DNA of 64,000 bases from a virus, in the IMG/VR virus record IMGVR_UViG_3300017917_005108, positions 64,001 to 128,000 of that record; one strand, 5' to 3'. The notes under the pieces are model-generated. The model saw nothing but the letters and a program-made list of their open reading frames with translations, was not told where the DNA came from and made no database searches. A program made the translations under genes and the position numbers. Below, piece after piece: positions 3,291 through 36,925 of this stretch. Position 1 is the stretch's first letter. The number at the start of each line of letters is the position of its first letter.

Positions 3291-5576
3291 TTATGAAACA
3301 ATCTCCTGGAAGTTTGTTCCTGTTCTTGTTGCATAGAAGTTAGCTAAGATATATTCAGCTGTTCTTACAGGCTTAATATAAATGTCAACTACTAATGAAT
3401 TGTCATCAATTACAGCAGCTGTATTATTACGTTCATCACATATGATGAGGTAATCATATATACCTTGTGTATTCTTAGCATTTTCAAACAAAGGTGTCAA
3501 TGTATTGACAACTTGTGTTCTTGTAAAGAGTGTATTTGGCTCAAAGACAAACAACTTAACAGTGTCGCGGGTAGCTGTCTCAAGATTTAAGAACAATCTA
3601 CGTACGTTAATTCTGTCAAATGCACTTGGTACTTTCTGTAATGTCTTTTGACCAAAGATTACAAATCCTTCAGCAGGGAAGAATGCAATAGGATTAATAT
3701 TAATCTTGTAAAGATCATCTCTTTGCTTTTGCTTAGGATAATAAGCTGTATCTGTTACACCTTGAATAAGACCGCGTGTAAACCCTGCGGGTGCGTACCA
3801 TGGTTGATAATTTGTATCTGTATTAGCCATTGCAGCTGCTACAAATCCAGAAGATGGTACCCATACCGGTAGGTTAGAAGCAATATCAGTTACTCTTACG
3901 CAAGAACCAAATGTGCAAGCATAGCTTGTATCAATACCTGTAAATTGATTCTTTAATGGCCAGTATATATCAGTAGAGAATGATTTTGTAGGTTCATCAA
4001 TTGTCTTAATACCACCAGATACTAATATATTGGTAAGAGGATCTAGTATAGCAAGATTATCTTTACGCTTTACACCTGCAAAGGATACAAATTCACTTGC
4101 TACTGCAAGATAATTGCTTGCTGCAGCAGGAAGAGAAGTTGCTCTCTGTGCTGTTAGTGCATTAAAGGCAGAATCATAAGTTACCGTATCATCAAAGTAA
4201 CCTGATGTGGCGGGGTTAAATGAGTTTACATAAACTGTACCAAGACCAGCTTCAACAACAAGATTAATTGGATAAATGTCAACATTTTCAACTTTATCAA
4301 ATAGCTTGCTAACCTTAGTAGGTACACTGCCAATTATCTTTGTGGATAGATCAGCATTAGAATAATCACCAATTGCAAACAATGCATCGGTATCACCATA
4401 CTGCGTACGCATTTCATTAACAACGGCTTGTGGTGCACCTACTCTTGCTGTATAGTCTGAACCAGATTCACCGGCAAGAGGAGCTCCTAAGCGAGGTGTT
4501 AGGAAGCGAACCTTCTTTGTTGGTACCCCATCAATGTTAAGCCATGTGTTAGCTCCCTTATTGGAAATATAAGGATTAATTAAAGTAACTACCTGCAAGG
4601 AGCTATCATCCAATGTTTCAATAGAGAAGCTTTGTGCAGGGCCTCCGTTGGTAGAATTTCTTTGTCTATTAGCATCAAAGGAACCAACATAGCTTTCATC
4701 AAGAACATAACCTAATGCAATTGTATCAGGTGAAAATACTGATTGACGTAATTTAAACACTGTTAATATTGCAGTGTCGTCATAATCATTTCCGGAAATA
4801 TCAAAAGAAGGAACATCTTCAATTACTTGAGATATGCTATTACCTGGCCCTGTAGAAGAAGCAGATAGAGTGAAATCTAATCTTGCATCAGGAAGTGTAA
4901 TATAATTTGTAATTGATGCATTAGTAGAATTAATTGATAGTACTCTATTTACATCGTCATATTCTGTAGCAGGATTTAAGTTAGTATTATCAGAAAATCC
5001 TAGATAATACCCTTCATATCTGGTATTAATTGTGGATTGAGATTTGTTTAGAACAATAACGCCTGCAGCACTTAATGAAGTAACACCACTAAATACTTTA
5101 GTTCCAGATGTATTGTTGGACCATGTAAATCCGTCGCCCTTGAGAATACTAATATACTGCTCTTGTGTGAGCTTTAAGTGTGTTGGTTTACCGAAGAAAT
5201 AATTTGCAGAAGGTGCAACTAGGCTTGTTGAAGAAAGCCCGTTGATATAGGAAACAACAGGATAGACTAATGCACTGTAACTATCGGATGTATCTGCCCC
5301 AGCACCAACGCCATATGGTAGTCTATATACTAAAACGTCTGCAGGGCTTTGAAAAGAGGCTTTAACAGAATGATAAAAATATCTTTCAGCGGCATTTGTT
5401 GGTTGGCCGTAAATTTGTTCAAATTCTGATAAGCTGCTAACTTTAATTGGTTCGGAAACAGGACCTTTTGGAGCAAAACCGGGTACTAATATTGTAGTTA
5501 CTGGGTTAGCTGCTGCTCGCAATGAAAGATCTACTTCACTAATTTGTACACCTGGACTTTGTATTTGACGGGCCAT
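3291..5576 (-). CDS. 18: Contractile tail sheath protein (gp18)
   Basis: 'SPGVQISEVDLS', 'PWYAPAGFTRG', 'FGQKTLQ', 'SAFDRINVRRLF', 'FEPN', 'IYIKPVRTAEYI'. Confidence 0.95.
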   Translation of the reverse strand: MARQIQSPGVQISEVDLSLRAAANPVTTILVPGFAPKGPVSEPIKVSSLSEFEQIYGQPTNAAERYFYHSVKASFQSPADVLVYRLPYGVGAGADTSDSYSALVYPVVSYINGLSSTSLVAPSANYFFGKPTHLKLTQEQYISILKGDGFTWSNNTSGTKVFSGVTSLSAAGVIVLNKSQSTINTRYEGYYLGFSDNTNLNPATEYDDVNRVLSINSTNASITNYITLPDARLDFTLSASSTGPGNSISQVIEDVPSFDISGNDYDDTAILTVFKLRQSVFSPDTIALGYVLDESYVGSFDANRQRNSTNGGPAQSFSIETLDDSSLQVVTLINPYISNKGANTWLNIDGVPTKKVRFLTPRLGAPLAGESGSDYTARVGAPQAVVNEMRTQYGDTDALFAIGDYSNADLSTKIIGSVPTKVSKLFDKVENVDIYPINLVVEAGLGTVYVNSFNPATSGYFDDTVTYDSAFNALTAQRATSLPAAASNYLAVASEFVSFAGVKRKDNLAILDPLTNILVSGGIKTIDEPTKSFSTDIYWPLKNQFTGIDTSYACTFGSCVRVTDIASNLPVWVPSSGFVAAAMANTDTNYQPWYAPAGFTRGLIQGVTDTAYYPKQKQRDDLYKININPIAFFPAEGFVIFGQKTLQKVPSAFDRINVRRLFLNLETATRDTVKLFVFEPNTLFTRTQVVNTLTPLFENAKNTQGIYDYLIICDERNNTAAVIDDNSLVVDIYIKPVRTAEYILANFYATRTGTNFQEIVS

Positions 5577-5619
5577 ATAAAATATTTATTGAAATCAAGA
5601 TAAAGTTTTTGAAAAAAAA

Positions 5620-14574: not shown

Positions 14575-14895
14575 TCAACTATCTTCTCTATTATTACAAT
14601 GTATAAAGAATTTATTAACTAACGTAGCAAGAGAATCGGCTTCTTGCTGATTGTGTGCAGATATAATATTGATTGGCTCACCGTTTTCAGTATAACCTAA
14701 AATAATAAAACAGTTTAAAAACTCTTGAATAGTGTTAGTTAATGCTTCTAGATCTTTACGCTTCTCAACCTTTTCTTTAAGCTTTCCAGATAGAAAATTA
14801 TAAATCGCTTTGTTTGTAAGTTCTTTTACTTCTTCGTGTTTTGAAGGGTCAAAGTCGTTTAAATCACTTTGCGAGTTCTTTTGGTTCTTCTTCAT
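14575..14895 (-). CDS. Hypothetical protein
   Basis: ORF; TAAATA 6 nt upstream. Confidence 0.65.
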   Translation of the reverse strand: MKKNQKNSQSDLNDFDPSKHEEVKELTNKAIYNFLSGKLKEKVEKRKDLEALTNTIQEFLNCFIILGYTENGEPINIISAHNQQEADSLATLVNKFFIHCNNREDS

Positions 14896-15247
14896 TTAAA
14901 GTATTTAATGATCTATTACTGCTATATCTGTTTTTTCCAGGGTAGTCAGAATTACAAATACCATGTTTTATAAGAAAATCTACAACTACTTGCATACTGT
15001 CAGTCTTTAGGTAGAAGTTCTTTGGTATATTAACACCACCGTCATCTAATTCAAAAAGCGTTTCACCAATTTCTGTTTTATTTGTATAACAAGTACAAAT
15101 AACAGAGTTAAAGCTAGGATTTATCATTACTGTCCATCTTCTAGGATCTGCCTTGCTATATACAGAGAATAATCTTATTACAACAAAACCATTATCTCTA
15201 AGTCTTTTGATAAAATACCCTGGTGTTCTTAATTTATTTTTTGACAT
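14864..15247 (-). CDS. Hypothetical protein
   Basis: ORF immediately downstream of the clamp gene. Confidence 0.65.
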   Translation of the reverse strand: MSKNKLRTPGYFIKRLRDNGFVVIRLFSVYSKADPRRWTVMINPSFNSVICTCYTNKTEIGETLFELDDGGVNIPKNFYLKTDSMQVVVDFLIKHGICNSDYPGKNRYSSNRSLNTLNEEEPKELAK

Positions 15248-16466: not shown

Positions 16467-17333
16467 TTATAGATCTTCAAGCAGTTTCTGTAAAGATTCA
16501 TCTTCTGCAGTTGAAGTGCTAGATGGCTTAGTAGTCTCAACCTTTACAGCTTCTGTCTTCGGTGTAGGAAGACTAGCATTTTTAGTCTTTGCTGATTCGT
16601 CTTTTTCAACTACATCAACATCTACGTTGCAATGATAATGCTTGCTGAGTAGATCTTTTAATTCATCATACGACTTAACAGTAAGGTATGATTCAAGATC
16701 AAATACACTGTTATAAATCTTGCTATATGAATCTTCATCTAGACCTTCAACTTCTTTAGGGGAGGTAAACTTAGAGGAAACATATGTAGGATAGTCACCC
16801 TGCTTTTCTACCTTAATCTTAAAGTTTACGCCTTTAGGGCTTAAATCAAAAATACGAGGGCCAAGTTCTTCTGCTTCTTCACCCTGCATTGCATCCATAA
16901 TAATCTTATGAAGCTGGCGACCAAAACGAAGAATTTTAACTTTATTGTTATTCTCTTCGTTCACTGGGTCATTGATAACATAACAGTTAACAAGCCAACG
17001 CTCTGTACGTACAATGCCTTTTGCCTTTTCCTTCTCCTTATCAGTACCGTTTCTTAAGATTCTATAACGCTCCTCAGCAATAGGATCACGCTGATTCCAG
17101 GTGGTAGGGCTTACTGCAGTAATAAGCTGACCAGTAGAAAAGCTATTCCAGCCATAGGAATAGTAGTGCAAAAAGGTTTTAGTAGGATCCTTGGTAAAGG
17201 GTAGAAGTCTAACCGTATAAGTATTGCCTACCTCAGTGCGTAAAAAGTCCTTAATCTTATTTGAACTATTGCTAGTTTCTTTAGTGAGAGCCGATCTAAT
17301 GCTTTCAAACATCGAGTTGGTAATGGAATTCAT
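16467..17333 (-). CDS. 32: Single-stranded DNA-binding protein (gp32-like)
   Basis: 'VRLLP', 'NCYVINDPVNEENNNKVKILRFG', 'FDL...GVNFKIK', 'Y..SKF', 'KSYDELK', acidic tail. Confidence 0.88.
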   Translation of the reverse strand: MNSITNSMFESIRSALTKETSNSSNKIKDFLRTEVGNTYTVRLLPFTKDPTKTFLHYYSYGWNSFSTGQLITAVSPTTWNQRDPIAEERYRILRNGTDKEKEKAKGIVRTERWLVNCYVINDPVNEENNNKVKILRFGRQLHKIIMDAMQGEEAEELGPRIFDLSPKGVNFKIKVEKQGDYPTYVSSKFTSPKEVEGLDEDSYSKIYNSVFDLESYLTVKSYDELKDLLSKHYHCNVDVDVVEKDESAKTKNASLPTPKTEAVKVETTKPSSTSTAEDESLQKLLEDL

Positions 17334-17363: not shown

Positions 17364-18005
17364 TCAAGCATTTTCTTTAATTTTTTTTATACCTTGTTCT
17401 ACAAAAACTTTACACTTTTTAGAATTTAGAAACTTTACCTTAAAAGTGTCAAAATTATTAACAAAATCCTCACCAAGCATAAATCTAACTACTTCTAAAT
17501 CTGATTTTTTAAAATTTTTTTCAAATGTATTAAAACCAAATAATGAATAAATGTTAATTTTTCTTTCTTTTAAGTGTATTAAGAAATAATGTAAATTGTT
17601 AGATACTTTATCAGTATATAGTTCTAATGGAATGTTTTCTTTACTGCAAAACTCTCTTATAAAAAGAAGAGAATTTTTTGTAAAAGCTAACTGTTCATCT
17701 GAATCGGGGTCAAGCTTTTCTCTTTGTTTTTGTACAATTGTATATGCTTTAGTAGCTTTTAATGTAGAGAAGTGTTTAAGATCTAAAAACGGCGAATCTT
17801 TATACACAATAAATGATGCACTAAAAAAATCTTCAGGCTTAACTTCTTTATTTCTATTGAAGAAATTAACTATCTTTTTCAAATATACAAATGCTTCGTC
17901 GTTTAAAGTAGAAAAATCTTTTCTAAGCTTATAAGGCTTATTATTATTTGATCTTAAGACTTTTAGATATGTGTTGTATATGTACTTGTCGAAATCTGTT
18001 ACCAT
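17364..18005 (-). CDS. Hypothetical protein, possibly a gp59-like helicase loader
   Basis: Size, basic helical composition and position next to gp32; sequence support is weak. Confidence 0.35.
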   Translation of the reverse strand: MVTDFDKYIYNTYLKVLRSNNNKPYKLRKDFSTLNDEAFVYLKKIVNFFNRNKEVKPEDFFSASFIVYKDSPFLDLKHFSTLKATKAYTIVQKQREKLDPDSDEQLAFTKNSLLFIREFCSKENIPLELYTDKVSNNLHYFLIHLKERKINIYSLFGFNTFEKNFKKSDLEVVRFMLGEDFVNNFDTFKVKFLNSKKCKVFVEQGIKKIKENA

Positions 18006-18208
18006 TTATAATACTTCCACTTGTTCCTAAGAACTTGTGGCTTTATCTTTTTCAGCATGCTTGGTTTGAGGTATGTACGTTTAAGGCGAAGCTCTTCCAT
18101 AATAAAAGATCTGCTTACTTCGCTTGAAAACTTTTTTAACATTCTTTCAAAATATTCTTTATCAGAACATCTTTCTTTCTTTAATTTTACTTCGGCTTTT
18201 ATAATCAT
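17999..18208 (-). CDS. rpsU: Phage-encoded ribosomal protein bS21
   Basis: 'FERMLKKF...V....IMEELR....YLKPS' matches the bS21 pattern (E.ALRRFK..V...G...E.R....YEKPS); 69 aa, basic. Confidence 0.75.
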   Translation of the reverse strand: MIIKAEVKLKKERCSDKEYFERMLKKFSSEVSRSFIMEELRLKRTYLKPSMLKKIKPQVLRNKWKYYKW

Positions 18209-18480
18209 ATTGAGTTAAAGTTTTTGGAATTTATAAATTTCATTATATATTTACTCTTATACAATGTTGAATCAAATTGTAAAAAGTACTTAAGAGCATA
18301 GTAGTCATTTTTAAAGTCGCAATAATTCTTTAAAAGATCTCTGAATTTTTTATTTTTTAGTACAAGTAAGAATACATTAGCTAGATTCAATTTTTTTGTA
18401 TCAAGTAGTGTACAGAATGTACAGAAAGACAAGAAAAGATGATTTACTTCGTAGTGTGTTATTTTTTCTGATGGGTCCAT
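18205..18480 (-). CDS. Hypothetical protein
   Basis: ORF with ATGA overlap to bS21. Confidence 0.65.
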   Translation of the reverse strand: MDPSEKITHYEVNHLFLSFCTFCTLLDTKKLNLANVFLLVLKNKKFRDLLKNYCDFKNDYYALKYFLQFDSTLYKSKYIMKFINSKNFNSI

Positions 18481-18481
18481 T

Positions 18482-19384
18482 TTAGTTTACCGGATAAAGA
18501 AGTTTTGTAATGTTAAGGAAGTTATCATTAACAGTTCCACCTGCTACAAATGCATCACCACCTCCATTAAAAAGTTTTTTAGCAAAATTTCCTAAATGAA
18601 CATCTACGCTTTTCTTTTTTCTTATACTTAGATTATTTGTTTTTAAATTTACACTTATTACTATATCACAATTATACTTGTCAATCACCATTCTACATAT
18701 CTCTGAAGGGTGTAGCTCGTTAAATGTACTGCATACAGAATACTGCTTACCGCCAATTTTTAAATCGCCCTTAAAAATTTTCAAAGAATTAAAGTGTTCA
18801 TTTAGTTCATCGGTACATATTTTTACAAGAGACTGCTGACCTGTAGTAAATTTAGTAAAGCCATTACTAAACAAGTTATAAAAAGCTTTTGCTTTTTCAC
18901 CTACTAGTGTCCAATACAAGCAATTAAGCTGTAGTGTTTCAGGAAATTTTAGCTCATAGCTATCATAGTCGTCAATTAAAATTAATAACTTCTTTTGTTC
19001 GGGTGTGAGCGGTGTTTTAAATTTTTCTTTTAATTTTTTATAAATTAAGATAGTACAGCTTGAATATTCCTGTGATTCATTTTTAAGGTTTTTTGTGATT
19101 ATATCTTTTTCAGATGAAATAATTCTGTGGTTAATGTAGACTACATTAGGCAAATCTATAATATCTTTACAGCTTTCAATAACAGCTAAATCGCAAATAT
19201 AAATTTTTTTATATTCGTCTTTATTTTTTAACTGTGAAAATTCGTCTCTAAATTTTTTTTCTGTTGTTTGTATAACTTTAAAATCTTTACCAATAAAATT
19301 TCTAAACACATAGTACACACCTGCGCCATCTAAGTCTATATCTGTAAATAGAACTATACTAGGATTAGATGAGGTCTCCACCAT
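18482..19384 (-). CDS. DHH/DHHA1-family phosphoesterase with degenerate catalytic motifs
   Basis: 'DIDLDG', 'ICDL', 'NHR' in place of DHH, 'DDYD', 'SIR', 'GGGDAFVAGG'. Confidence 0.7.
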   Translation of the reverse strand: MVETSSNPSIVLFTDIDLDGAGVYYVFRNFIGKDFKVIQTTEKKFRDEFSQLKNKDEYKKIYICDLAVIESCKDIIDLPNVVYINHRIISSEKDIITKNLKNESQEYSSCTILIYKKLKEKFKTPLTPEQKKLLILIDDYDSYELKFPETLQLNCLYWTLVGEKAKAFYNLFSNGFTKFTTGQQSLVKICTDELNEHFNSLKIFKGDLKIGGKQYSVCSTFNELHPSEICRMVIDKYNCDIVISVNLKTNNLSIRKKKSVDVHLGNFAKKLFNGGGDAFVAGGTVNDNFLNITKLLYPVN

Positions 19385-19411: not shown

Positions 19412-20737
19412 TCAACTCAAGGATAGATTTGTAAGTGTTGATATTGAAGATGTTGAAGCTTCCGTTTCATTATTGATTTCATCTTCAGTTAATGTAAGAG
19501 TTGAGTAGTCAATGCGCATATTAACAGAGCCAAAGTTTGCACCAAATCTATTCTTCATCATACCCATCTTTATTACACCTAATTCTTTATCTGTATCTTC
19601 TTGCCAAATGCTTAATATTACGTCAGCAGTAAAGCCTAATCCCATAGATTCGGATAATGTCTTTAATCCGGGATCACTAACTTCATAGCCTTCTCTATTG
19701 AGCTGTGTAGCAGATATGACAGGAAAATTAAAGACATAGCTCAAAGCTCTCAACTGTTCTGTGACGTATTTAACTCTTTCATATGTGTTATTACCGATAG
19801 TAGTATGAAGAAGATTAACGTAGTCAACAACAAGAGCATCTATTTTAATGCCTTTATTTACAATCTTCTTAATGAATGCTTTTAGGTTATTTGTTGTTAT
19901 AGTCGATGGGGGGAATTCTTTAATAATAATCTTTGATGATGGATTGGTGTTTCTATAGTCCTGTAATTGTTGAAATAGTGTAGTAGATTCACTCTTAAGA
20001 TGGCTAAAAGGTATTTTTGTAATATTAGTACAAAGTCTTTTTGCGTATATCATTTCAGGCATCTCAAGAGATACAAGTAATACTGTCTTACCCTGTGATG
20101 CAATGTTTACTGCAATATTACCTAAGAAGATTGACTTACCGATATTAGTTTCACCTGCAAAAATATAAATAGATCTTCCACTTTCTAGAAAACCACCGCC
20201 AATCTTATCATCAAGCCATTTCCATTTAGAAGATATATAATTCTCTTGCTTATTTAAATCATCAATAATTTGGTTGGTATCTTCAAGCAAATCAAGTCCA
20301 ATATTTGTTGTTAATGATACGTTACAGGCTTTTTCAAATTTATCTAAAACTGCGCTTGTATCTACGGAGTTTTTATTAATATCGTCAACAACCTCAAGCA
20401 TTGTATAGTATACAGATTTCTCTTTTAAGAATGTCTCAGTATTAGAGTTTAATTCATCAGCATTTAAATTTTTATCAAAATTATTAAAACTATTGATTAC
20501 ATTTTTAAAGCTTGTTTTTAATTCTTCTGTAGTAAGATATGTCTTTATTTCTGTTGGTGTAGGCTTCACGCCTCTCTTTTGATAAAATTCTTTTATTACT
20601 GTAAAGATATTCTTTATATCTACATTTTTAAAATAAAGAGGCTTAACATAATCAATAATAGAAGCAAGATAAGTCTCATCAGTAAGAGACTTATACATAA
20701 TGACGTTCTCAAAAAAATCTAAATCAAGCTTCTGCAT
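19412..20737 (-). CDS. 41: Replicative helicase (gp41/DnaB-like)
   Basis: 'GETNIGKS', 'SLEM', 'IKEFP', 'VDYVNL', 'SATQLNR', 'SES', 'KNRFG'. Confidence 0.93.
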   Translation of the reverse strand: MQKLDLDFFENVIMYKSLTDETYLASIIDYVKPLYFKNVDIKNIFTVIKEFYQKRGVKPTPTEIKTYLTTEELKTSFKNVINSFNNFDKNLNADELNSNTETFLKEKSVYYTMLEVVDDINKNSVDTSAVLDKFEKACNVSLTTNIGLDLLEDTNQIIDDLNKQENYISSKWKWLDDKIGGGFLESGRSIYIFAGETNIGKSIFLGNIAVNIASQGKTVLLVSLEMPEMIYAKRLCTNITKIPFSHLKSESTTLFQQLQDYRNTNPSSKIIIKEFPPSTITTNNLKAFIKKIVNKGIKIDALVVDYVNLLHTTIGNNTYERVKYVTEQLRALSYVFNFPVISATQLNREGYEVSDPGLKTLSESMGLGFTADVILSIWQEDTDKELGVIKMGMMKNRFGANFGSVNMRIDYSTLTLTEDEINNETEASTSSISTLTNLSLS

Positions 20738-20745
20738 TATCTTTA

Positions 20746-21441
20746 TTATATACCTAAACTAGAATATTCACTAAGAAATTTTTCCTGGCTCTGTGTAAAA
20801 GATGGGTCATTAGGATTTAATAAACCGGGTGATCTATGAATTACCCATATAGGATGAACACCAAGCTTTAATTTTTTGGAATTTGCATCTAAACTACTTG
20901 CAATATCGTAATGATGGAATTTATAATTTTCATTAAACTTCCATCCAGACTTTTTAATTTTTTTAGTATCAATACTTATAAACAGACCATCTAGAATTGC
21001 TACGCGTGAAGGAGTGGCGCCAAAAGTAGTCATAACTAACGATTCGTTATCTGCAAAATGGGCAACAGCTCCTCTAAGATTACCACTACCAAAGCCACCG
21101 CACATTAAATGCCATAAAGCTGGTCTTATTATTTTTGCATTCACACCGCCAGCAAGACCAACTATATCATATCTTGTATGAGCTGCTACAAGCTTATCTA
21201 CGACATTAAAGTCATCTATATAAACATCATCATGAACAAAAACTATATAATCATAATTTGAAATATTATCAAATAATTCTTTATTATATCTTACACTAAG
21301 GCCATCAGTGTTATTGCAAGCATAGTGTATATCAATATCGTGCTGTGTTTTTACTTTTTCTGTTATTTTAGATATACTGTTGTAGAAAAGAGTATTTTCT
21401 ATGCTTGGGCTTCTAGTAGCGCTAAAAAATGCTATCTTCAT
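20746..21441 (-). CDS. GT2-like glycosyltransferase
   Basis: 'YN', 'FVHDDVYI', 'IVGLAG', 'LDGLF', 'FHHYD', 'IHRS'. Confidence 0.75.
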   Translation of the reverse strand: MKIAFFSATRSPSIENTLFYNSISKITEKVKTQHDIDIHYACNNTDGLSVRYNKELFDNISNYDYIVFVHDDVYIDDFNVVDKLVAAHTRYDIVGLAGGVNAKIIRPALWHLMCGGFGSGNLRGAVAHFADNESLVMTTFGATPSRVAILDGLFISIDTKKIKKSGWKFNENYKFHHYDIASSLDANSKKLKLGVHPIWVIHRSPGLLNPNDPSFTQSQEKFLSEYSSLGI

Positions 21442-22124
21442 GCAGTAAAGAAAGGTGAATTTGGTTTAAATTCACCAACAGATGTGAGCCCTTCCACTGT
21501 TTGTAAAAAAAGTGTACCTTCTTCGAGAGGTTTGAATTTATCGTGCGGTATAGATGAGAAATCATTGCTAATATAATCTGCATATAGCGTGCTTCCAGAA
21601 CGAGCTAGATATACGTTACCGGTTTTGCTATTATATATCCAAAGTCCAAATGTTCCTTTTAAAAGTGATAATGCAGTACAAATACAGTCAACTTCTTTCT
21701 TCGACTTCTCGCAGACAGAATGTATCAGTGCAGGTATAACAGATGAATCTACTTCATTAATGCTTTTATATTTTTTAAGCTGCTTTTTAAGCTCATTATG
21801 ATTTGTAAGAACACCATTATGCGCTACATACCATTCCTTCTCATTAAATGGATGAGTTGTATCGTGTTTATAGTCTCTTTGAGATGAGGTCGGTGCTTGC
21901 GTATGGCCAAGGTAATTCTTAAAATCACTCAAAAGCATAGATTTTTTTCCCTTCAATTGAAGGGCTGGTTTTCCAGAAAAATTAAATGTTCCTTTTACTT
22001 TTACAACAGCGTGTAACTTATTGTCAATAAACACACCTCCATAAGAGAAATTACCTCGTTTCTTATTTTTCTTATATAAAGACACATATCTTTTATAATC
22101 CTTTGATCCGAAGATACCGCACAT
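21438..22124 (-). CDS. Stand-alone class II glutamine amidotransferase (Ntn-hydrolase)
   Basis: 'MCGIFG', 'RG', 'GHTQAPT', 'HPF', 'AHNGVLTN', 'VDS'. Confidence 0.85.
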   Translation of the reverse strand: MCGIFGSKDYKRYVSLYKKNKKRGNFSYGGVFIDNKLHAVVKVKGTFNFSGKPALQLKGKKSMLLSDFKNYLGHTQAPTSSQRDYKHDTTHPFNEKEWYVAHNGVLTNHNELKKQLKKYKSINEVDSSVIPALIHSVCEKSKKEVDCICTALSLLKGTFGLWIYNSKTGNVYLARSGSTLYADYISNDFSSIPHDKFKPLEEGTLFLQTVEGLTSVGEFKPNSPFFTA

Positions 22125-22160
22125 TCATATATTATATGCGATTAGCATAAATAATTCAAG

Positions 22161-33825: not shown

Positions 33826-34937
33826 TTATGCTTTTTATATAGCTCTTGAGCATACTTGATTATATACTCTTTATCGTTGATATCTAGAAGGTTAACAAAC
33901 TCTTCAATGGCTTTTGTAATATCAACACCGGATGCATCAAAATTAACATCATCTGCAATTTGTATATCATTATTCACTAGAGAATAATCTACAGATATAG
34001 AAAACGGTTTATATACAGAAAGTTTTTTTAAGAGTGTGTCTACATGATCCGGGGCTACCTTCATATCAATAATAAGTTTTACAATATTATTCTCTATTTC
34101 AGTTTTTATTTGTTTTATATCTTTTTGGTCTTTTACTACTGCACCCTCTTTTGTATTAGCAATTAAATCTGTCAATAGTATTTTTTTATGTTTTGGTGAT
34201 ATACTATTTTCAAAAAATTCTAAATTGAGTGTGTTGAAATCAAGTATATAGTATCCTTTAGTTGAGCCTGTATCACTAAAATCCATCTCAAATGGGTTAC
34301 CTACGTATAGAATTCTTTTACCACTATAGTTTCTATCATCTCTTAAATGAAAATGACCTGTGAGGATAAGTGATCCCTTACTTAATAGCTCTTCAGTTTT
34401 TGTACCATGATCACAGGTCTTATAGCTGTTCATCTTAAAACTTTCAATTTCAAAATGGCCAAAGATAATATCTGATTCTTTTATATCTTCTAGTTTAAAC
34501 CCCCACGGTACAAAAGAGCATTTTTTTCCTAAAATAGTTGTATTAGTAACTTCTGAAATAATTGTAATGTTCTTCCAGCCGTCAAAAAGAGCTAATGAAT
34601 TTATATCAGCTCGGTCTTTATAGTAAGAATCGTGATTACCAACAATAATAACTATATTAAAATTTTTCCATATTTTGAATATTTCATTAACAACATGTAG
34701 TGTGTTTACAGCAATTTCATCTCTATAGTGAAAAACGTCTCCTAGTATAAAGATGTCTTTGATATCTTGCTTCTCTAAAGATGTCTTAAGCCATTTAGCC
34801 CAAGACAAAGCATTTTCATGCCAGAAAATACTATTCTGGTGAACGCCAATATGAAGGTCTGCAACACAGCAGACTTTATTGGTTTTAACTGTAAATTCTT
34901 TAGTTTCCTGCGGTGTTATAGTTGTCGTCATCTCCAT
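33822..34937 (-). CDS. 47: Recombination endonuclease subunit (gp47, Mre11/SbcD-like); start approximate
   Basis: 'DLHIG', 'LGDVFH', 'GNHD', 'GHFE', 'GHFH', 'YVGNP'. Confidence 0.92.
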   Translation of the reverse strand: MEMTTTITPQETKEFTVKTNKVCCVADLHIGVHQNSIFWHENALSWAKWLKTSLEKQDIKDIFILGDVFHYRDEIAVNTLHVVNEIFKIWKNFNIVIIVGNHDSYYKDRADINSLALFDGWKNITIISEVTNTTILGKKCSFVPWGFKLEDIKESDIIFGHFEIESFKMNSYKTCDHGTKTEELLSKGSLILTGHFHLRDDRNYSGKRILYVGNPFEMDFSDTGSTKGYYILDFNTLNLEFFENSISPKHKKILLTDLIANTKEGAVVKDQKDIKQIKTEIENNIVKLIIDMKVAPDHVDTLLKKLSVYKPFSISVDYSLVNNDIQIADDVNFDASGVDITKAIEEFVNLLDINDKEYIIKYAQELYKKHK

Positions 34938-35505
34938 TATTGGAAGGGTCAACGTACAGATGGTAGTTAGCATCTTCACTCTTACTCGTCATAATATCAG
35001 TATAAACCCTGTCCTTGTAGTTAGTGACAGTTTCATGATGCTTCTTTTCTTTCTTAATACGGTTAATAAACGCATGAAATGCAATTGTAGTAAAATATGA
35101 AAAAGGACTAAAACCTGAATCTAGCTTAAACTTTTTATTTTTTAATGCTGATACCATCTTTACAATTGCATCGCCGATCATTTCTTCTTTATAGGAGTAA
35201 TTAATAAAATTTGGTGCATAAGATAACCCATGAGCTATCTTAGTGATTGAATCTCCAAGCTTAAGTGAAATGTGATCTGTCTTATAAAAGGTTCTAATTT
35301 CATCTTCAAATTCTTTACCGTTTACATAATGTACTTTTTCTTTTCCTCTTGGTTTTTTACCTTCTTTTAAAAGTTTAGTAGGGTCGGCAACTTTAAGAGC
35401 TTCATCAACGGGAATGTCCTCTGTATCGGTATCTTCCAAGGGAAGATCTACCACATCCTTATTCTTGGACTTCTTTAACTTGGTACGAGATGTTTTCTTT
35501 TTCAT
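34900..35505 (-). CDS. 55: Late transcription sigma factor (gp55)
   Basis: 'HYVNGKEF', 'KIAHGLSYAPNFINYSYKEEMIGDA', 'PFSYFTTIAFHAFINRIKKEKK'. Confidence 0.92.
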   Translation of the reverse strand: MKKKTSRTKLKKSKNKDVVDLPLEDTDTEDIPVDEALKVADPTKLLKEGKKPRGKEKVHYVNGKEFEDEIRTFYKTDHISLKLGDSITKIAHGLSYAPNFINYSYKEEMIGDAIVKMVSALKNKKFKLDSGFSPFSYFTTIAFHAFINRIKKEKKHHETVTNYKDRVYTDIMTSKSEDANYHLYVDPSNNGDDDNYNTAGN

Positions 35506-36925
35506 AAAGTGCTTTTCTTTTTTGGAAATGCTGATAACCATATTGCAAGTTATCAGCAACGTCTACTATTATAAGCTTATCCTTATCCTTATGCAACCGT
35601 AAACCTCTTCCTATCGACTGTAATATCTTAATTTTTGCTTTTCCGCCGCCTGCAAAAACAATATAGTGAAGATTTTTAATATTAATACCTGTGGAAAATA
35701 TCTTTGAAATAGCTACCACAATAATATTATGATGCTCTTCCATAAGTTTTCTAACTTTTTCTCTCTCTTCTACTTCTACTTCTCCTCTTATATAAAACAC
35801 CTGCTTATCGTTACATTTTTCTTTTATGCTATTATAGAGAATTTCACCGTGTTCAATATAGTCAACAAGAATTAATGTATTTTTTACGGTGCCACAGGAA
35901 AATTTTGACAGTAAGTTATTTCTAAAATTATTTTTTATTAGAAAAGAAATCTCAGCTCTATATCTATCAGAAGCGTTTATTAGTTCCTTAGGATATTGCG
36001 GTAGTGTGGTATAATTTAACTGAAGAACTACAACACTAACATTACTAACATAGTTTTCTAATCTCAGTTGATAGCTAGATTTTTCATATAAAACCTGCCC
36101 AATCTTTCCTATTATATTCCATTGATCTAATAAACACTCAGGCATAGTACCTGTAAATCCAAACCTAACAGGCGTTTTTATTATTTTAAATAATTTGTTT
36201 ACCTCGTTACCTCTTCTTATTTTATGAACTTCATCTACTATCAATACATCTATATTTTCTAGCCAACTTAGGTCACTATTTTTGCTTTGTAAAATTCCAA
36301 GATTGGCAATAATAACGTTTGAGGTATCGTTTTTTCCATCTTCTAATGGATATGACCCCGTCCATCTGCGTGTAGAAAAGGGTACATTATAAGAACTAAA
36401 ATCAGTAAATGTTTGTGTTACTAACCCAAGATCGGGAACTATATACAAACATTTAAATTTTTGGCCATATAGTAAAAATAATTTTGTGAGAAGTGATGCA
36501 GCAGTTAGAGTTTTTCCGCCTGCAGTTGCAAGTACTATAGTACCTCTACCAGTATTATACGCGGTTTTAACTATCTCTTCTTGATAATCTCTTAGAGGTA
36601 GTGCTAATTGAACTATAGATGAATTAAACCTATGGTCTTTTTGCCAGATTCTTGATGGTTTAATAACATTTAAAAGTTCTTCCTCTACTTTGATTTCATC
36701 AGAATATTGATTAGTGATAAAGTATTTTTTAATTTCTACTGCTAAGCAGGGATCAAATCTACCGGTGGCTGTAATAGCATAAGTGCGCTGTGGTGCAAAT
36801 CTTCCATAGCCTCTTATAAACTTTGCTGCTTCATTTTTAATAGAAAAGTGTTCTCTAATTTCTTCTAATCTGTCACTAACAAGCAAACCTACGCCTTTTT
36901 TTGCATCGTATTTTAGTTCTGTCAT
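35459..36925 (-). CDS. uvsW: SF2 DNA helicase (UvsW)
   Basis: 'LRDYQ', 'ATAGGKT', 'DEVH', 'GFTGT', 'FSTGINIKNLH', 'QSIGRGLR'. Confidence 0.92.
   Translation of the reverse strand: MTELKYDAKKGVGLLVSDRLEEIREHFSIKNEAAKFIRGYGRFAPQRTYAITATGRFDPCLAVEIKKYFITNQYSDEIKVEEELLNVIKPSRIWQKDHRFNSSIVQLALPLRDYQEEIVKTAYNTGRGTIVLATAGGKTLTAASLLTKLFLLYGQKFKCLYIVPDLGLVTQTFTDFSSYNVPFSTRRWTGSYPLEDGKNDTSNVIIANLGILQSKNSDLSWLENIDVLIVDEVHKIRRGNEVNKLFKIIKTPVRFGFTGTMPECLLDQWNIIGKIGQVLYEKSSYQLRLENYVSNVSVVVLQLNYTTLPQYPKELINASDRYRAEISFLIKNNFRNNLLSKFSCGTVKNTLILVDYIEHGEILYNSIKEKCNDKQVFYIRGEVEVEEREKVRKLMEEHHNIIVVAISKIFSTGINIKNLHYIVFAGGGKAKIKILQSIGRGLRLHKDKDKLIIVDVADNLQYGYQHFQKRKALYEKENISYQVKEVQE

Follow-up and report, generated by a model that had tools for sequence, protein, structure and literature searches.

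A strongly diverged bS21 gene in the replication operon of uncultured T4-like phages

The bS21 gene and its genomic setting

The stretch of DNA analysed here (the window) comprises 64,000 nucleotides (nt), corresponding to bases 64001-128000 of a 162,497-bp IMG/VR virus record (genome G000; 31% GC) for which CheckV gives a completeness estimate of 77%. It contains a gene for a protein of 69 amino acids (aa) that resembles the bacterial ribosomal protein bS21 and is the subject of this study:

17999..18208, minus strand: divergent phage bS21, 69 aa, ATG start (Pfam PF01165; clade profile against PDB bS21 chains; AlphaFold2 (AF2) model with a predicted local distance difference test score (pLDDT) of 86; ratio of nonsynonymous to synonymous substitution rates (dN/dS) of about 0.07)

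The gene is part of a minus-strand string in which an amidotransferase-like gene, a glycosyltransferase-like gene, a gp41-type helicase gene, a weakly DHH-like open reading frame (ORF), a 91-aa ORF, the bS21 gene, a 213-aa ORF, gp32 and four more ORFs follow each other in that order. The packing of this string is tight, as neighbouring genes either overlap or are no more than 31 nt apart. The T4-like markers found in the genome are gp32, gp41, gp55, tail tube and tail sheath, and the lineage that hosts the gene consists of uncultured novel T4-like phages of about 160-185 kb with 31-35% GC, described as freshwater or marine. Megablast and tblastn searches with the region and with the bS21 protein against 50,697 phage records returned no match, the sensitivity of such a search being low for a 69-aa query.

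Identity and sequence features of the 69-aa protein

An original prediction made on this DNA had described the 69-aa protein as bS21-like and proposed a check with the Ribosomal_S21 profile hidden Markov model. The protein sequence is as quoted there, and it was matched by the profile (PF01165) with 31.1 bits (E 1.9e-7), which exceeds the gathering cut-off of 27 bits. The solved bS21 chains matched by a profile of seven homologues, namely the phage protein and six database sequences, come from Lactococcus, Staphylococcus, Pseudomonas, Bacillus, Flavobacterium and E. coli (E-values between 1e-6 and 2e-4). Identity between the phage protein and a Bacteroidota-type bS21 reached 40% over 43 aa, and a PHROG search found no family for the protein.

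The core of bS21 is retained in the form of the helix-1 Phe (RRFKR-type), the Arg/Lys run of the Arg-rich helix 2 and the Y-x-KPS motif. In an alignment of 51 sequences that includes canonical bS21s, F27 and S50 are invariant while K48 and P49 are at least 90% conserved. The AF2 model made from the same alignment is confident (pLDDT of 86.4) and consists of helices at residues 17-34, 36-44 and 49-66; bS21 chains are the only neighbours it has in PDB, although weak ones. An N-terminal insertion (L-x-K-K-x-C/S-S/T-D-K-x-Y-F) was found throughout the clade. The aromatic C-terminus singled out by the original prediction (KWKYYKW) is also present, the protein ending in RNKWKYYKW, and KW[KR] followed by aromatic residues is conserved across the clade. 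Many clade members were observed to have a Cys within the N-terminal insertion (K-K-x-C-S/T-D-K) and a second one in helix 2 (K-R-C-Y/F-Y-K-P-S), neither of which has an equivalent in canonical bS21.

Distribution and conservation of the clade

A profile search of 1.84 billion representative proteins returned six clusters with E-values below 1e-10, followed by a gap before the generic bS21s appear at 1e-8 and weaker; the gap between the clade and the cellular bS21s extends from 1e-13 to 1e-8. The clade gene is carried by 34 IMG/VR loci, and a pattern scan for the clade in 185,579 bacterial and archaeal species genomes found no carrier. The nearest match outside the clade (P0015) is located on a 673-bp contig with an uninformative context. 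The clade is small and phage-only, and a cellular donor is not detectable among the genomes scanned.

A total of 38 distinct bS21 sequences, all of them intact and stop-free, were recovered across the fetched loci. Pairwise dN/dS values in the clade are 0.06-0.08, with one pair having synonymous differences only. This strong purifying selection together with the 38 stop-free relatives rules out a chance ORF. Judged from its sequence, the ORF at 17999-18208 is a genuine, selectively maintained and strongly diverged paralogue of bacterial bS21.

Gene starts without Shine-Dalgarno signals and with late boxes

The genes of G000 were called crudely, non-overlapping ORFs no shorter than 50 codons being assigned their first ATG as start, and the windows upstream of these starts were then examined. 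No enrichment of G was found at positions -14 to -5 of the called starts, where it is in fact depleted. The four-base core of the Shine-Dalgarno (SD) sequence occurs in 8.3% of the upstream windows compared to 6.9% of random windows, whereas the same counting gave 41-60% in T4 and 41% in the Pelagibacter phage HTVC008M as positive controls.

Another element was found close to many starts. The box TAAATA lies 5-7 nt before 40 of the 192 called starts (about 20%), and 24 of the 75 ATAAATA sites in the genome are positioned 5-7 nt before a called start. A count that does not depend on the ORFs gave 29 occurrences of ATAAATA-N5-7-ATG against three for the reversed control. An origin of this association in the in-frame TAA inside the box was considered and rejected, as the dominant spacing of 5 nt is out of frame and the reversed control is about ten times lower. 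Genes bearing the box include those for tail tube and tail sheath, and about 43% of genes overlap the preceding gene or start within 10 nt of it. The features concerned in the window are as follows:

5583..5588, minus strand: TAAATA box, followed after 6 nt by the tail sheath gene (ATG at 5576)

14902..14907, minus strand: late-type TAAATA box, followed after 6 nt by a 106-aa gene (ATG at 14895) that stands at the distal end of the bS21 gene string

34900..35541, minus strand: gp55-type late sigma factor, 213 aa (phmmer with T4 gp55, E 1e-10; phrog_234 'late sigma transcription factor', 93.2 bits)

The PHROG match of the sigma factor spans residues 67-192, which places about 65 N-terminal residues outside it. 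The T4 late promoter is a TATA box (TATAAATA-type) that precedes the transcription start by about one helical turn (PMC2988020), and in T4 itself the late box lies 16-30 nt before the ATG. Given this one-helical-turn geometry and the 5-nt spacer, the transcription start in G000 is predicted to be at or next to the A of the ATG. The genome therefore appears, on sequence statistics, to be SD-free and often leaderless-looking, a reading supported by the presence of both the T4-type late box and gp55. The leaderless phage mRNAs assumed by the original prediction are supported to the same extent by the box-ATG statistics, the lack of an SD signal and the gp55 gene. We found no description of this combination of SD-free genes, a box at the ATG and coupled downstream genes in the literature searched.

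Presence and absence of bS21 among related phages

Relatives were sampled with the helicase as marker, which yielded 80 loci with 57-85% helicase identity. The replication module is syntenic in all 80 of them. The relatives differ in whether they have bS21, which when present stands as a single gene precisely between the 91-aa and 213-aa ORFs; the latter directly follows the former in relatives that do not have bS21 (S21-less). In all 61 S21-bearing loci the gene is located in the helicase-gp32 replication module. It occurs in nearly all relatives with a helicase at least 69% identical, the one such relative in which it is missing being L043 (75%). Almost all of the more distant relatives do not have it, with the exception of two short loci (L022 and L025; 58-63% helicase identity). 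Searches of whole records found no bS21 in five S21-negative records, while the control detected it in four of four S21-positive records including that of the window. The phage bS21 is an accessory single-gene insertion at a fixed site in the replication operon.

One of the S21-less records (G002; 184,542 bp) is a 100% complete genome that carries direct terminal repeats. The box lies at 5-7 nt in 49 of its 288 genes, the ORF-independent pattern has 30 matches against four for the control, and SD is at background. The related records G006 and G007 share the SD-free box-at-ATG design of G000. When loci of at least 12 kb were pooled, box-ATG sites amounted to 2.98 per 10 kb in S21-bearing and 2.28 per 10 kb in S21-less loci. 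Since the S21-less relatives, including a complete genome, share the SD-free leaderless design, this design is independent of bS21: it is a property of the lineage, neither a consequence nor a dependent partner of bS21, and probably a property of the host as well. The coupling of bS21 to leaderless architecture put forward in the original prediction was thus not borne out by the comparison across related phages that it had itself suggested.

The upstream intergenic DNA of G002 is also enriched in the motif AAGGAAAG (AGGAAA, 27 occurrences compared to 3.8 expected), though the enrichment does not extend to the -20 to -4 region. This motif may be an early or middle promoter element.

The replication operon and neighbouring genes

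The genes and the promoter-like site surrounding bS21 are as follows:

22131..22159, minus strand: sigma-70-like promoter TTGAAT-17-TATAAT, a consensus match only, with its end 6 nt upstream of the first operon gene's ATG

21438-22124, minus strand: class-II glutamine amidotransferase-like protein, first operon gene (Pfam GATase_6/7 match to orthologues; synteny)

20746-21441, minus strand: glycosyltransferase-like protein, second operon gene (Pfam Glyco_tranf_2_5 match to orthologues; synteny)

19412..20737, minus strand: gp41/DnaB-type replicative helicase (DnaB_C, 97.4 bits; phrog_19, 244.8 bits)

18482..19384, minus strand: 300-aa ORF, weakly DHH/DHHA1-like (DHHA1, 14.4 bits, E 0.054, below cut-off)

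18205..18480, minus strand: 91-aa ORF, function unassigned; its stop overlaps the bS21 start (ATGA)

17364..18005, minus strand: 213-aa ORF, function unassigned; 7-nt overlap of its start with the 3' end of bS21

16467..17333, minus strand: gp32 single-strand DNA-binding protein (PF08804, 64.5 bits; phrog_224, 140.5 bits)

The original prediction had placed bS21 within a helicase-DHH-gp32 operon; the helicase and gp32 have profile matches of 97.4 and 64.5 bits, and the DHH likeness is weak, at 14.4 bits. The DHH-like ORF is itself present or absent among the relatives. As both it and bS21 are variable, the stretch between the helicase gene and the 213-aa ORF is an accessory insertion hot spot. 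The 91-aa ORF is kept in S21-bearing and S21-less relatives alike, immediately upstream of the insertion site. Pfam and PHROG searches with the 213-aa ORF gave no match, and its candidacy as a gp59-type helicase loader was dropped as similarity to the HTVC008M helicase loader was not detectable. No match was obtained in phmmer searches with T4 gp45, gp62 and RegA as queries.

Sigma-70-like matches are not enriched across the region (60 compared to 50.4 +/- 6.3 in shuffles). TATAAT is enriched in upstream intergenic DNA (30 compared to 9.9 expected). Since the TATAAT at the head of the operon ends 6 nt short of the ATG, leaderless transcripts may also arise from early or middle units. No SD was found upstream of the bS21 gene. 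From the gene arrangement, bS21 most likely shares a transcript and translational coupling with the helicase and gp32 genes. It is also probably made together with the replication proteins and ahead of the late genes, because of the tight packing of the operon and the promoter-like site at its head.

Clues to the host

The lack of SD would suit a host that initiates independently of SD, such as Bacteroidota. Upstream of the genes, however, TATAAT is enriched and the Bacteroidota-type promoter motif TAnnTTTG (-7) is not. Two RNA genes located outside the window were annotated in the same record:

G000:C1:282-688, minus strand: one-piece transfer-messenger RNA (tmRNA; Rfam RF00023, 96 bits)

G000:C1:159242-159316, minus strand: tRNA(CAT) of elongator or Ile2 type (G1-C72 pair; G29-G31 run absent)

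The one-piece form of the tmRNA, as read from its sequence, argues only against an alphaproteobacterial-type two-piece origin. A homology search with the tmRNA for the host gave matches in mycobacteriophages that were confined to the universally conserved 3' end. Its tag frame is unusually long with 33 codons, starting AEDNFDMA and containing an internal ILAAA that is not followed by a stop. The S21-less G002 has 24 tRNAs and no tmRNA. The tRNA(CAT) was also considered as an initiator and rejected, given its G1-C72 pair and the missing three G-C pairs of the anticodon stem.

Comparison with the Flavobacterium-type bS21

The original prediction had drawn on an analogy with Flavobacterium, where bS21 helps to sequester the anti-SD. 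The Bacteroidota signature described by Jha et al. 2021 (PMC7797042) has two parts: Tyr54, which is located 12 residues past the KPS Ser and stacks on A1534, and a C-terminal domain of lower basicity. The offset of 12 residues was confirmed on Bacteroidota-type sequences among our homology matches. At the equivalent position the phage protein has Asn62 (ungapped BLAST alignment), which is not aromatic, and the clade as a whole shows N, F, Y, Q, K, L or D there, with a nearly invariant Trp two residues further on (Trp64, at +14). The C-terminal isoelectric point (pI) is 10.5 for the phage protein and 10.5-11.2 for the clade, compared to values of 9.5 and 10.75 in a Bacteroidota-type sequence and in HTVC008M, respectively. 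By its sequence, then, the phage protein has neither the aromatic residue at the Tyr54 position nor the less basic C-terminus of the Bacteroidota type, and the Flavobacterium analogy is not supported for it. It resembles the F. johnsoniae bS21 (PMC7797042; McNutt et al. 2023, PMC9976891) in its family, in its predicted 30S site by the 16S 3' tail and in the SD-free coding context, and differs from it in these two features.

Comparison with other phage and cellular bS21 systems

Phage-borne bS21 genes were known before this study, as the original prediction had said, from pelagimyophages and Bacteroidetes phages (PMC6375957, PMC9723584). bS21 has been reported as a core gene of pelagimyophages that sets them apart from cyanomyophages (PMC7029224), and we confirmed a canonical bS21 in HTVC008M (NC_020484), Mosig (MT647606) and the Methylophilales phage Melnitz (MZ577097). 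All three are cultured phages and also have ATAAATA 5-7 nt before the ATG more often than the reversed control (HTVC008M, 13 and 2; Mosig, 9 and 1; Melnitz, 7 and 3), and the starts involved are annotated late-gene starts. Syn9 (2 and 3), P-SSM3 (3 and 3), S-CREM1 (5 and 0) and T4 (3 and 2) have neither the box-at-ATG design nor bS21. This gives a hint between lineages of a link between bS21 and leaderless genes, with pelagimyophages having both features and cyanomyophages and T4 neither, in a sample that holds two independent gains of bS21 only. Standard late-promoter prediction was reported to fail in pelagimyophages (PMC7029224), and we found no description of leaderless late genes for them in the literature searched.

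The bS21 of the window is similar to that of HTVC008M and other pelagimyophages (PMC6375957; Zaragoza-Solas et al. 2020, PMC7029224) in its length (about 67-69 aa), its occurrence in an aquatic T4-like myovirus and its purifying selection, and both genomes have a late box 5-7 nt before many ATGs. However, the HTVC008M protein is canonical and host-like, scoring 65.7 bits to PF01165 with the Gly kept, whereas the protein of the window scores 31 bits and has Phe, the insertion and the KWK-aromatic tail. The helicases of the two phages are less than 30% identical, and they therefore belong to separate phage lineages. In addition, about 41% of HTVC008M genes have an SD whereas the genome of the window has no SD signal.

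The bS21s of freshwater Bacteroidetes phages (Chen et al. 2022, PMC9723584) share with the present clade a C-terminus conserved within the clade and the proposal of a substitution that favours phage transcripts. They differ in keeping Tyr54 or another aromatic residue and in resembling Flavobacteriia, whereas the protein of the window has Asn62 and no special affinity to Bacteroidota. The substitution of phage bS21 into host ribosomes has already been proposed (PMC6375957; Chen et al. 2022, PMC9723584; stated in PMC9976891). E. coli 70S ribosomes take up the bS21 of HTVC008M, and with such ribosomes the in vitro translation of a green fluorescent protein template drops to about 5% (Mizuno et al. 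2019, PMC6375957). In E. coli ribosomes without bS21 and uS2 the anti-SD is repositioned and the leaderless lambda cI mRNA is favoured (PMC10491246). Taken together, these two results fit a bS21 variant that shifts the balance between SD-led and leaderless mRNAs. The Francisella bS21 paralogues (PMC9578407) and the bS21/uS2-deficient E. coli (PMC10491246) are precedents for a change in bS21 altering which mRNAs initiate, but both are cellular cases of heterogeneity and involve neither a phage protein nor a leaderless late-gene design. Moreover, it is the loss of bS21 that aids leaderless mRNA in E. coli, a direction which does not predict the effect of an added variant.

Possible roles of the phage bS21

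On balance we lean, at slightly better than even, towards the phage bS21 being an optional protein that would join the host 30S subunit and bias initiation to phage mRNAs. This is the mode of action that has been suggested for other phage bS21s. The gene would have been acquired as a lone accessory insertion that separates two small, conserved genes of the replication operon. With the rRNA-binding core retained, its product would assemble at the bS21 site of the host 30S platform, by the 16S 3' tail and the mRNA exit, where the N-terminal insertion and the basic KWK-aromatic tail may reshape the surface. Initiation on the altered surface could then be biased to the phage mRNAs, which are SD-less and often leaderless. 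Since sister phages without bS21 show the SD-free leaderless design as well, the role of bS21 would be that of an optional enhancer and not of the foundation for this design.

Several observations weigh against this reading. The protein scores 22.5 bits to TIGR00030 (NCBIfam equivalog), under the cut-off of 28.95 bits. Phe35 (SRSFIMEE) aligns in the profile alignment with the conserved K-x-G Gly that lies between helix 1 and helix 2, so that the usual Gly is missing, as the original prediction had noted; the change to Phe or Leu is limited to the subclade around the phage of the window, and most clade members retain Ser-Gly. The sole Foldseek neighbours of the AF2 model in PDB are bS21 chains, which are weak matches of no significance (E 4-6), and VIA-align of the model to bS21 chains is similarly weak (Z 6.0, 4.8 and 3.0). 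The S21-less relatives show that bS21 is dispensable for the life style of the lineage. Lastly, the bS21 genes of the best-studied phage clades, those described by Chen et al., are found among terminase, capsid, protease and portal genes and are late-expressed, whereas the gene of the window belongs to a replication operon.

The original prediction had gone further in proposing one takeover system, in which the phage bS21 replaces that of the host, occludes the anti-SD and disfavours SD-led host mRNAs while sparing the leaderless phage mRNAs. The leaderless-looking design from which it starts is real, and it can call on the preference of bS21/uS2-less E. coli ribosomes for the lambda cI mRNA (PMC10491246), on the translation of about 5% by ribosomes with HTVC008M bS21 in vitro, and on the pelagimyophages, which share the box-at-ATG (bS21 in three of three tested) where cyanomyophages and T4 have neither. 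Within the lineage, however, it is unsupported: the box stands at the ATG with the same frequency in G002 and other S21-less relatives (pooled values as given above), and these have no SD. A lineage that is SD-free regardless of bS21 points to an SD-independent host, which removes the SD-led host mRNAs as a target and with them the proposed discrimination. The non-aromatic Asn62 at the Tyr54 position and the basic C-terminal domain (pI 10.5) also speak against it, as do the position of the gene inside a probably translationally coupled operon and the sampling of two independent bS21 gains only. A blanket occlusion of the anti-SD would even hurt HTVC008M, where SD precedes about 41% of the phage's genes. 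We therefore regard this takeover as unlikely.

An equally improbable role in our view is plain supplementation, where the phage bS21 completes the ribosome pool after host shutoff or in a host with scant or no bS21, and with no selectivity among mRNAs. The location of the gene among early or middle functions would suit such a role, but the strong divergence from cellular bS21s (the E-value gap of 1e-13 to 1e-8, the insertion and the KWK tail) suggests an altered function, and no close cellular donor was found in the 185,579 genomes. That divergence, with the Gly lost in the subclade, would also suit a regulator that binds phage or host RNA off the ribosome, a translational repressor or chaperone like T4 RegA; the protein is very basic and regA likewise has a replication-operon location in T4. 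The residues it retains are nonetheless those common to ribosomal bS21, and the sole phage bS21 that has been tested does enter ribosomes, which makes a regulator of this kind more improbable still. A decaying or non-functional remnant of a captured rpsU might be suspected from the marginal profile scores and from the absence of the gene in some close relatives, yet a dN/dS of 0.06-0.08, 38 distinct intact copies and a conserved position and length leave it hardly any credibility.

Significance

Phage bS21 is the commonest virus-encoded ribosomal protein. The clade described in this study is an extreme variant of it that barely matches the profile and has no detectable cellular donor, with the Gly lost in a subclade and a basic tail rich in Trp and Tyr. 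The phage group to which it belongs offers a natural comparison of presence and absence at one fixed locus.

If bS21 has no effect on the choice between SD-led and leaderless mRNAs, it would be one more accessory translation gene in aquatic phages. A broader conjecture, which we consider unlikely, is that T4-like phages with late promoters abutting the ATG recruited bS21 at least two times independently, in canonical form in the pelagimyophages and in diverged form here, and thereby re-tuned the 16S 3'-tail and mRNA-exit region toward leaderless or SD-less phage messages. If true, this would amount to a phage-encoded specialised ribosome.

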